Below, piece after piece: positions 12,958 through 13,859 of a DNA stretch of 64,000 nucleotides; position 1 is the stretch's first letter, and each line of letters opens with the position of its first letter. The DNA comes from a virus: IMG/VR virus record IMGVR_UViG_3300012984_000568, positions 1 through 64,000 of that record; one strand, given 5' to 3'. Under the pieces are notes generated by a model, which was not told the DNA's origin, did no database searches, and saw only the letters and a list, made by a program, of their open reading frames with translations. A program made the translations under genes and the position numbers.

Positions 12958-13322
12958 TTGGACTCCAAAGGTCGACGCCGGCTGCGCCGAAGCGCTTCCC
13001 GTCTGCATGACGGAGCACGCGGGCCGGCCAACGCTCGCTGTTCGGTTTTTGTGGTCAGCCGAGCCCCAAGGACTTCCACCCTGGTTCCGGGTACGGAGCG
13101 GGCTCCACAACATTGGGCGGACCCAAGAGTTTCGCTGACGCTCCTGACCGTTGCTCGACGCTGTCTCTCCAGCTGTCAAAGTGTCGACTGTGCACACCGC
13201 TCGGGCCATCGAGCATTGGGACCGTGGTCCGTGCCCGGTTTGGCCTTGTTGCGCCACCCGCGATTGGTCGCAGCCGTTACTGACTACGAATGTTGCCGTT
13301 TTTGCATCCGCGGCCGACACTG

Positions 13323-13394
13323 TTGCAGGGGAAGGAATCGCACCTTCGACCTTCGGGTTATGAGCCCGACGAGCTACTGCTGCTCCACCCTGCA
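13323..13394 (-). tRNA. tRNA-Met(CAT), initiator type; CCA not encoded
   Basis: Cloverleaf TGCAGGG/CCCTGCA, anticodon arm TCGGG-CTCATAA-CCCGA with three G:C pairs, A11:U24; variant T-loop TGCGATT. Confidence 0.9.
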
Positions 13395-13568
13395 ATAAGC
13401 CAGCGGTACGGCGCACACAGCCGCCGAAGCAGCCTGCCTTGGCACCCCACGATCGCGCCGCTGGCAGCACGCTCGTGTCGCTTTGCATCAACGCTGACTC
13501 ACCAATGTCTTGGGTGAGCCAGCTCCGCTCAGCGATATAGGAGTTCTTTCGCCCCTCAAGTGCGGGGC

Positions 13569-13646
13569 TGGGCGCGCGGTCAGGGGTCGAACCTGACTTG
13601 CCGTGCACGGCGTTCCCATAGCGAACCTCGCGGTTCACTCGCGCGC
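13569..13646 (-). ncRNA. tRNA-like RNA (acceptor stem, T-arm and CCA; non-canonical D and anticodon region)
   Basis: GCGCGCG...TCAGG-TTCGACC-CCTGA-CCGCGCGC-CCA, with internal GTGAACC-GCGA-GGTTCGC and GCCG-TGCA-CGGC hairpins. Confidence 0.55.
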
Positions 13647-13859
13647 TTGGCACTGACCCGTGCCACGGAGTCTCGTAAATTATCTGCCCAATATGGGCGC
13701 TAGAATCAGCTCGGTAGGTTTGATGGCTCTCGTGGTCGCAGGCACTCACGCACGAGGCTTTCACCTCGACCGCCGCATGGCTTCCTCCCTTGGAGCATTG
13801 CGAGATGCACGCCGTGACGATAGCAAGCCGCACAACGAGCATCCAGAACGAGAGCGCCT

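Follow-up and report, generated by a model that had tools for sequence, protein, structure and literature searches.

A modular cassette of tRNA and tRNA-like RNA, probably conserved as RNA and kept translatable, in the early operon of a soil prophage

The window analysed here is a stretch of 64,000 nucleotides (nt) at the start of a provirus record of 84 kb in IMG/VR (IMGVR_UViG_3300012984_000568), whose DNA was obtained from a soil metagenome. On its minus strand, directly upstream of a gene for a Mom-like DNA-modification protein, about 0.85 kb of sequence hold one tRNA together with a series of further structured modules. On balance, we favour the reading of this stretch as a modular cassette of tRNA and tRNA-like RNA that is carried in the early operon of the prophage, is conserved at the RNA level and is kept translatable. 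An initial annotation had listed eight features of the stretch, all of which were found on the minus strand at the places given for them, and had proposed a new large non-coding RNA or a processed array of tRNA decoys. From this proposal, an RNA-level conserved, tRNA-bearing element outside any Rfam family, belonging to a rare family of its own, has been retained. The unbroken reading frame of the stretch had not been weighed, and as the sequences read, the element is not simply non-coding, because one open frame fused to the preceding gene runs through it here and in its relatives.

The two modules with the clearest shape are the following.

13322-13394, minus strand: tRNA-Met (anticodon CAU) of initiator type, called by ARAGORN and by Rfam RF00005 (64.7 bits)
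13569-13646, minus strand: tRNA-shaped mimic without anticodon loop, 78 nt with four arms

The tRNA at 13394-13322 is real. Its score extends over the full model (1-71) and lies well above the RF00005 gathering score of 29 bits, which places it in that family; its fold is more stable than that of shuffled sequences (z -2.5), and it is the sole tRNA in the 84-kb record. The embedded tRNA-fMet of the initial annotation was thus confirmed by both programs, and the GGG/CCC pairs of the anticodon stem (UCGGG-CUCAUAA-CCCGA) as well as the A11:U24 pair of the D stem (GAGC/GCUC) are hallmarks of initiators. The usual lack of a Watson-Crick pair between positions 1 and 72 (C1 x A72) is not seen, since U1 and A72 can pair. 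The molecule is also atypical in its T loop (UGCGAUU, with G at 55), in a D loop without GG and in the missing encoded CCA. The G55 and the D loop without its GG partner could reflect either a compensated tertiary pair or a weakened tRNA. The relatives described below read GS[INT]P at the T loop, implying a normal UUCGA loop, and their tRNA start translates as LRGR or LQGR, from which a normal CGCGGG start can be guessed. Host tRNAs that fall victim to defence nucleases can be replaced by phage tRNAs, and initiator tRNA is cleaved by some VapC toxins; replacement of a host initiator tRNA damaged by such enzymes is a possible reason to carry a tRNA-Met.

The acceptor stem of the mimic at 13646-13569 is perfectly paired over 7 bp (GCGCGCG/CGCGCGC). 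Two further arms, one of 8 bp with the loop GCGA and one of 4 bp with the loop UGCA, have tetraloops where the D and anticodon loops would be, and the unit ends with a T arm (GUCAGG-UUCGACC-CCUGAC) with the canonical T loop UUCGACC and an encoded CCA. This fold makes up 61% of the ensemble (z -2.9). As a tRNA, the mimic was not matched by RF00005 at E<=10 in a search of 641 nt, while ARAGORN was silent at its default setting and made a call at the 80% threshold only. Having acceptor stem, T arm and CCA without an anticodon loop, it is best read as a molecule that would be unable to decode. Several T-loop hairpins had been claimed for the stretch, which was overstated: the mimic holds the one canonical T loop, and the loops of the tRNA (UGCGAUU) and of a mini unit further downstream (UGGAAGU) are off consensus. 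The possibility that the tRNA-like ends are remnants of attachment (att) sites was rejected, because the initial annotation places the att core at about 10.1 kb and the mimic keeps both acceptor strands.

The cassette recurs in other sequences. When the 302-residue translation of the stretch was compared by phmmer with 1.84 billion proteins, 29 predicted proteins were found, about half of which match the tRNA-Met only, whereas about 15 reach past the tRNA and have further modules in common with it, read in the same frame. One more sequence came from a profile search of 5.8 billion clusters. Relatives are visible in this way only as proteins called by gene finders, and copies with a broken frame would be under-represented. 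The order of modules in the 5' part of the family is GGxHAA, then DHESHQ or YELSQ, an optional TPWHGSVP with the mimic, further optional modules and the tRNA-Met; in the 3' part follow the post-tRNA domain, TAGETAS, NGQERQR, the mini arm EGxSPSxSA and QQQES..R.AS...GAA with a stop. Modules were gained and lost among the relatives, and the order is altered in two of them (P0137 and P0133). Shared boundary modules and a collinear module order in about 15 independent sequences argue for a new family, which we propose here on the basis of translations. The family is rare, and its members come from soil-type metagenomes.

A closer copy was found in the rhizosphere sequencing run X2, from which contigs match 13178-13812 at about 97% identity; for this and the runs X3 to X5, interpretation is confined to the parts of the stretch with contig cover. 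Similarity to the X2 contig breaks off exactly at 13178, where the post-tRNA domain has its 3' edge, and such a break implies that modules are exchanged at domain borders. At the other end of this match, 202 nt (13812-14015), which hold a 63-codon open reading frame (ORF) and the start of the long frame, are replaced in X2 by 232 other letters, and identity returns at 14015.

Other searches delimit how rare the cassette is. In IMG/VR, neither the exact 29-mer of the mimic T arm nor the alignments A2 and A4 or P0125 gave a match, alignment A1 was too variable to serve as a query, and the neighbouring genes, used as anchors, led to no relatives. Among GenBank phages, blastn returned tRNA matches only and tblastn none. 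Only tRNA-Met genes were matched in whole genomes (206 from the phylum of G001, 401 from the phylum of G207, and five handles). Moreover, the cassette is absent at all 222 fetched loci anchored on Mom-like genes (71 viral, 71 genome and 80 metagenome loci), the closest of which, L144 (78%) and L073 (72%), have other genes directly upstream. Since none of the fetched Mom loci shares it, the cassette is not a partner of Mom, and a tRNA-dependent Mom chemistry was considered and dropped. In the predicted proteins P0127, P0129, P0134 and P0136, tRNA-Met genes standing in tandem have been translated, with a repeat every 55-57 codons or so. They match the tRNA-Met locus of a Verrucomicrobiia metagenome-assembled genome (L224, G001:C154) at up to 96% and are regarded as spurious ORFs.

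The translations of the relatives carry the evidence for selection on RNA. Covariation was inferred from them, with amino acids fixing the first and second codon positions only, and only hand-checked helices were used, because automatic pair scoring on BLAST-aligned translations was noisy where unrelated modules had been aligned. In the T stem of the mimic, two residues vary jointly: S..D is present here (UCAGG/CCUGA), F..N in P0123 and P0126 (UUCGG/CCGAA), W..H in P0124 and P0137 (UGGGG/CCCCA) and C..H in P0128 (UGCGG/CCGCA). The second pair of this stem is thereby C-G, U-A, G-C and G-C, fixed by the second and first codon positions. The first pair of the mini arm is G-C in seven relatives, which read E..S, and C-G in P0143 and the present sequence, which read Q..W; P0130 (E..S) and P0143 (Q..W) are otherwise nearly identical around this arm. 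The stem that closes the post-tRNA domain has G..S in place of A..V in all four diverged copies, and R..L replaces V..T. Three helices thus co-vary as far as translations can tell, and because the amino-acid pairs change as base pairs would, conservation most probably acts at the RNA level. In X2, pairing is kept in three of four stem substitutions, namely A-U to G.U at 13694 (GCCCA hairpin), G-C to G.U at 13399 (closing stem GCCAGCGG/CCGCUGGC) and U.G to U-A at 13274 (post-tRNA domain).

Besides this RNA-level signal, the stretch is open in one reading frame.

13789-13863, minus strand: first part of the long frame, encoding a hydrophobic helix of 24 residues, MKALSFWMLVVRLAIVTACISQCS; its ATG at 13863 overlaps the stop of the 63-codon ORF (ATGA)

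The ORF of 452 codons (13863-12505) that begins here traverses the whole stretch in frame with the Mom-like gene. Its 302 codons upstream of the Mom start contain no stop, as compared to four to nine stops in the other five frames (p about 5e-5 against shuffles). The start peptide MKALSFWMLVVRLAIVTACISQCS has a G+C content of about 0.78 at third codon positions, as read from the sequence, and AlphaFold with the family alignment predicts a helix over residues 2-24 with a predicted local distance difference test score of about 95, as opposed to about 45 for the rest. With conservative hydrophobic changes, the same peptide opens the frames of P0125, P0126, P0128, P0131, P0135, P0137 and P0138, and from it six frames run to the last module of the element with differing interiors: P0125 (499 amino acids), P0126 (294), P0128 (269), P0131 (398), P0137 (365) and P0138 (342). 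The chance of the open frame in each relative is roughly 1e-4 or less. P0143 enters the element from a protein with an HTH_3 domain and P0139 from an N-terminus that reads as Cro-like and has no Pfam match. In X2, the difference in length is a net in-frame deletion of 27 nt at 13536-13573.

The amino acids of this frame show little sign of selection. Nine of the ten changes listed for X2 are non-synonymous in the long frame and two of the ten fall at third positions, whereas 22 of the 26 changes between the Mom-like gene and the soil contig X3 are at third positions (Fisher p 5.6e-4 for the two patterns). The codon log-likelihood of the long frame is faintly positive to about 13420 and about zero beyond. 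Apart from the HTH_3 domain at the start of P0143, the translations of the family matched nothing in Pfam or PHROG, the ESM Atlas gave no usable match, and the recognition value of a language model was low. The literature search yielded nothing pertinent on tRNA genes inside translated frames. By the pattern of substitutions, the long-frame amino acids are not under purifying selection, and by comparison among the relatives, the frame is kept open through the cassette while being fused to whatever gene lies upstream.

The predicted fold of the whole stretch adds to this picture. The minimum free energy (MFE) of the 843-nt minus strand is -391 kcal/mol, corresponding to z -5.4 in one run and -3.8 in another, as compared to z -2.4 for the plus strand of the same stretch and values from +1.2 to -3.8 for nine coding control windows of the same length. 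The dense structure noted initially therefore holds for the minus strand as a whole (z -3.8 to -5.4), but only four of the 11 modules are singly significant: the tRNA-like unit, the 11-bp hairpin, the GCCCC/GGGGC hairpin and the tRNA. Thermodynamics by itself gives moderate support for a structured element. The covariance search against Rfam that had been proposed found tRNA RF00005 only; all other families, including GOLLD and ROOL, gave no match at the gathering threshold or at E<=10. Transfer-messenger RNA (tmRNA) was found neither by ARAGORN at default nor in Rfam at E<=10, and a "permuted tmRNA" appeared only among 37 calls at a very lax threshold. Group I and group II introns, Y RNA-like RNA (YrlA) and T-box elements likewise gave no Rfam match at E<=10 over 12500-14300.

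The other modules, 5' to 3' on the minus strand, are these.

13761-13788, minus strand: 5' boundary module, with GGAGG (13788-13784), a spacing of 5 nt and AUG 13778; the long frame reads GGSHAA
13753-13768, minus strand: hairpin CGAGG-UGAAAG-CCUCG, not above chance (z +0.1)
13649-13698, minus strand: two small hairpins, GCCCA-UAU-UGGGC (13698-13686) and GGCAC-GGGUCA-GUGCC (13664-13649), z -1.8
13493-13568, minus strand: variable linker with two hairpins, GCCCC/GGGGC and one of 11 bp
13399-13465, minus strand: domain closed by GCCAGCGG/CCGCUGGC, directly 5' of the tRNA, not significant singly (z -0.7)
13180-13321, minus strand: 142-nt domain closed by AGUGUCGGC/GUCGACACU, always trailing the tRNA in relatives (z -1.8)
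13061-13173, minus strand: hairpin GCUG-GAGAGA-CAGC (z +0.1), a linker and a mini unit (z -0.9)
12958-13060, minus strand: 3' boundary module, ending in the ribosome-binding site GGAG of the next gene (12966-12963) and stop-free into ATG 12957
12950-12990, minus strand: 3' strand of a possible long-range helix with 13805-13771, which would cover the Shine-Dalgarno sequence and AUG of the Mom-like gene

In the 5' boundary module, GGAGG and AUG 13778 may form a strong Shine-Dalgarno sequence and start; this AUG opens a mini-ORF of five codons (MRRSR-UGA) in a frame different from the long one. Its motif GG[SQRC]H[AE]A is the first that is common to the relatives, regardless of whether the upstream gene encodes a transmembrane peptide or an HTH_3 protein, and at the beginning of the element no other motif is as well conserved among them. 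The CGAGG/CCUCG hairpin has a rival in the MFE fold, the longer stem CUCGUG/CACGAG. The GGCAC hairpin reads TPWHGSVP in the long frame, a peptide that is identical in P0123, P0126 and P0128. In the variable linker, the GCCCC/GGGGC hairpin (13568-13551) has z -2.8 and the 11-bp hairpin GCUGGCUCACC/GGUGAGUCAGC (13523-13493) z -4.2. The translation of the post-tRNA domain is 76% identical to P0124, and diverged forms trail the tRNA in P0125, P0131, P0138 and P0150. Further downstream, the GCUG/CAGC hairpin spans 13173-13160, and the mini unit of 45 nt (13105-13061) consists of the stem GAGCCC/GGGCUC and the arm CAGGG-UGGAAGU-CCUUG. At the position of the 3' boundary, the relatives share QQQES..R.AS...GS.A.QP.S..GAA followed by a stop. 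The end-to-end duplex between 13805-13771 and 12990-12950 is interrupted and comprises about 27 pairs, with -39.7 kcal/mol as compared to -23.9 +/- 3.8 for shuffles (0 of 2000 as low); among 6375 windows that could pair with the 5' segment, 12990-12950 comes third, with a poorer reciprocal rank. Judged from its position, this duplex could serve as a stalk for processing or hide the Mom-like start from translation.

The genes around the cassette form an early chain of overlapping genes, listed here as far as the Mom-like gene.

14553-14807, minus strand: HTH_3-like regulator in the early chain of overlapping genes
14015-14344, minus strand: HTH_3-like regulator in the same chain
13860-14051, minus strand: 63-codon ORF, directly preceding the long open frame
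12505-12957, minus strand: Mom-like, GNAT-type DNA-modification gene, flanking the cassette and lying outside it (phrog_1384, E 6.4e-21, profile positions 20-160 of 245)

The order on the minus strand is HTH regulators, small membrane peptides, cassette, Mom-like gene, HNH/DUF968, xis (excisionase, HTH_17) and int (integrase). A scan for consensus promoters and terminators found no such site inside the stretch. The best reading is that the cassette is carried within an early minus-strand operon of the prophage (cro to int) and would be transcribed as part of it. The match of the Mom-like gene covers the acyltransferase core of the profile, which assigns it to phrog_1384, and 868 homologues were found; one of them, P0003, is 88% identical and starts at the same internal ATG (12957). 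Hundreds of Mom-like homologues occur in soil and gut metagenomes in other neighbourhoods, in L144 beside an integrase and rarely near tRNAs. At the head of the chain, divergent HTH_3-like ORFs (14658-15335 on the plus strand and 14553-14807 on the minus strand) overlap at about 14658-14807 and resemble an immunity switch of repressor against cro; the plus-strand gene probably begins downstream of the start given in the ORF list. At 8907-11358, two convergent integrase ORFs overlap by 341 bp (9940-10280), both match phrog_1 with E about 1e-39, and the att core was placed inside this overlap by the initial annotation.

Several known systems resemble the cassette in part. The initial annotation had pointed to large phage RNAs such as GOLLD, and in agreement with it, both GOLLD and ROOL occur within the tRNA arrays of prophages, and GOLLD can have a tRNA within it (PMC12990946). 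Like the cassette, they are several hundred nt long, multi-domain, prophage-borne and tRNA-associated, with conserved ends and a variable interior (PMC12990946). Unlike them, the cassette is not matched by their covariance models, is placed in an operon, is fused to a frame and comes from soil-type phages with about 63% G+C. We know of no comparable open frame in GOLLD or ROOL. The tRNA cluster of phage T4 contains eight tRNAs and is itself plain non-coding DNA situated between genes, and in one precursor the tRNAs are joined with the structured, tRNA-sized stable RNAs C and D (species 1 and 2), which are of unknown function. There is no sequence similarity to this cluster, and the cassette differs by its single tRNA and its open frame. 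The mascRNA on MALAT1 is a tRNA-like processing signal of the same kind as the t-elements of plant mitochondria. The latter are non-decoding mimics of acceptor and T arm that are used by RNase P and RNase Z to cut transcripts (PMC1920247). Both are organellar or eukaryotic, and the mimic of the cassette is likened to them by its predicted shape. In tmRNA (ssrA), a tRNA-like acceptor and T arm with CCA is likewise joined to translated RNA, but the frame of the cassette starts at the normal start codon of the upstream gene and is hundreds of codons long. Rickettsia palindromic elements are structured, mobile-looking modules that are stop-free in one frame and translated with their host gene. They are short and present in many copies per genome, whereas the cassette occurs once per phage and includes a working-type tRNA.

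Three other explanations were weighed against the favoured one. It appears unlikely that the stretch is one large ornate non-coding RNA like GOLLD or ROOL, that is an uncut particle or scaffold of 0.85 kb with paired ends and a tRNA inside. The relatives do keep both boundary modules and their order around a variable interior, the ends are complementary over about 27 pairs, and the significant local hairpins, added together, fall short of the folding excess of the whole region (-38 kcal/mol); the location of GOLLD and ROOL in prophage tRNA arrays and the ability of GOLLD to enclose a tRNA (PMC12990946) fit as well. However, no large-RNA model of Rfam, GOLLD and ROOL included, matched even at E<=10, modules are gained, lost and in P0137 and P0133 reordered, the close relative X2 recombines at the domain border 13178, the closing helix is known from this sequence alone, and the kept-open frame is unaccounted for. 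For the related question of whether the RNA acts as one unit or as a processed array, the fixed module order and the possible helix between the 5' and 3' ends speak for one unit, the optional modules and the recombination breakpoint exactly at 13178 for an array, which is somewhat ahead. Quite unlikely, too, is the view of the stretch as debris, in which a decaying tRNA array with pseudo-tRNAs and recombination scars is left, only the tRNA-Met matters and the ORFs are artefacts of gene finding in GC-rich DNA. Only one module scores as tRNA, most are thermodynamically unremarkable, spurious ORFs over tRNA-Met arrays exist in the same database (P0127, P0129, P0134 and P0136), and no cassette was found beside the Mom-like genes fetched elsewhere. 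Such decay is difficult to reconcile with non-tRNA modules that are kept across relatives with differing flanks, with compensatory pairs in three helices, and with at least six divergent copies whose frame stays open over 269-499 codons, each with a chance of roughly 1e-4 or less, while the other frames have four to nine stops. Finally, a genuine protein gene, encoding a membrane-anchored or lipoprotein-like product with a long disordered tail that is here fused to the Mom-like domain, the tRNA being incidental, is very improbable. Relatives share the open frame, the hydrophobic helix at the N-terminus is real and has a lipobox-like VTAC in this copy, and the start is coupled to the upstream ORF by the ATGA overlap, but nine of ten changes towards the near-identical relative are non-synonymous, no codon-usage signal is present after about 13700, and neither a fold nor a family was recognised. 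In addition, the same tail stands behind an unrelated HTH_3 protein in P0143, residue pairs vary as base pairs do, and P0003 and other Mom homologues begin at the internal ATG.

The favoured reading of a translatable RNA cassette also has points that weigh against it. All covariation was read from the amino acids of the relatives, and the protein databases show called copies only, so that relatives with a broken frame would be under-represented. Most modules fold no better than shuffled sequences, one coding control window reached z -3.8, and the X2 substitution at 13521 breaks the 11-bp hairpin. The long-range helix is seen in this one sequence only, with a modest reciprocal rank, and the oddities of the tRNA-Met (G55, the missing G18-G19 and U1:A72) might mean that it is impaired. 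Furthermore, processing of the RNA, translation through the cassette and a role in anti-polarity or coupling are parts of this reading that we infer.

If the stretch is a modular, translatable RNA cassette, the tRNA-Met would be released by RNase P and 3' processing, and the tRNA-shaped modules would be seen by the same enzymes, either as processing punctuation or as decoys. The open frame would let ribosomes trail the RNA polymerase over 0.9 kb that would otherwise go untranslated; their passage could avoid Rho-type polarity on the genes for Mom, xis and int. On reaching the start of the next gene, the ribosomes could bring about translational coupling, and they may melt the long-range helix that masks this start. 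A bolder version, which we put forward only tentatively, is that the cassette is meant to be read through by ribosomes and that RNA processing and translation are coupled. By one route, ribosomes would unwind the long-range helix and pass on to the next gene. By the other, cleavage at the tRNA-like sites would produce a non-stop message, and the upstream protein would become tagged by tmRNA.

GOLLD and ROOL stand beside phage tRNAs with known structures and unexplained functions, and the cassette is a further example, unrelated to them, from high-GC soil phages. Its distinctive trait is a frame that stays open without selection on amino acids and is joined to different upstream genes. If this open frame were an artefact of ascertainment, the remainder would be a new family of tRNA-associated RNA, useful but modest. 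If translation through the cassette is real, tRNA-like processing signals, polarity and translational coupling would be joined in one device, and annotators would be warned that long "hypothetical proteins" of phages can be RNA genes. In the case that the cassette is indeed made to be read by ribosomes, it would add a new strategy by which phages place large RNAs within operons and time the expression of xis and int.

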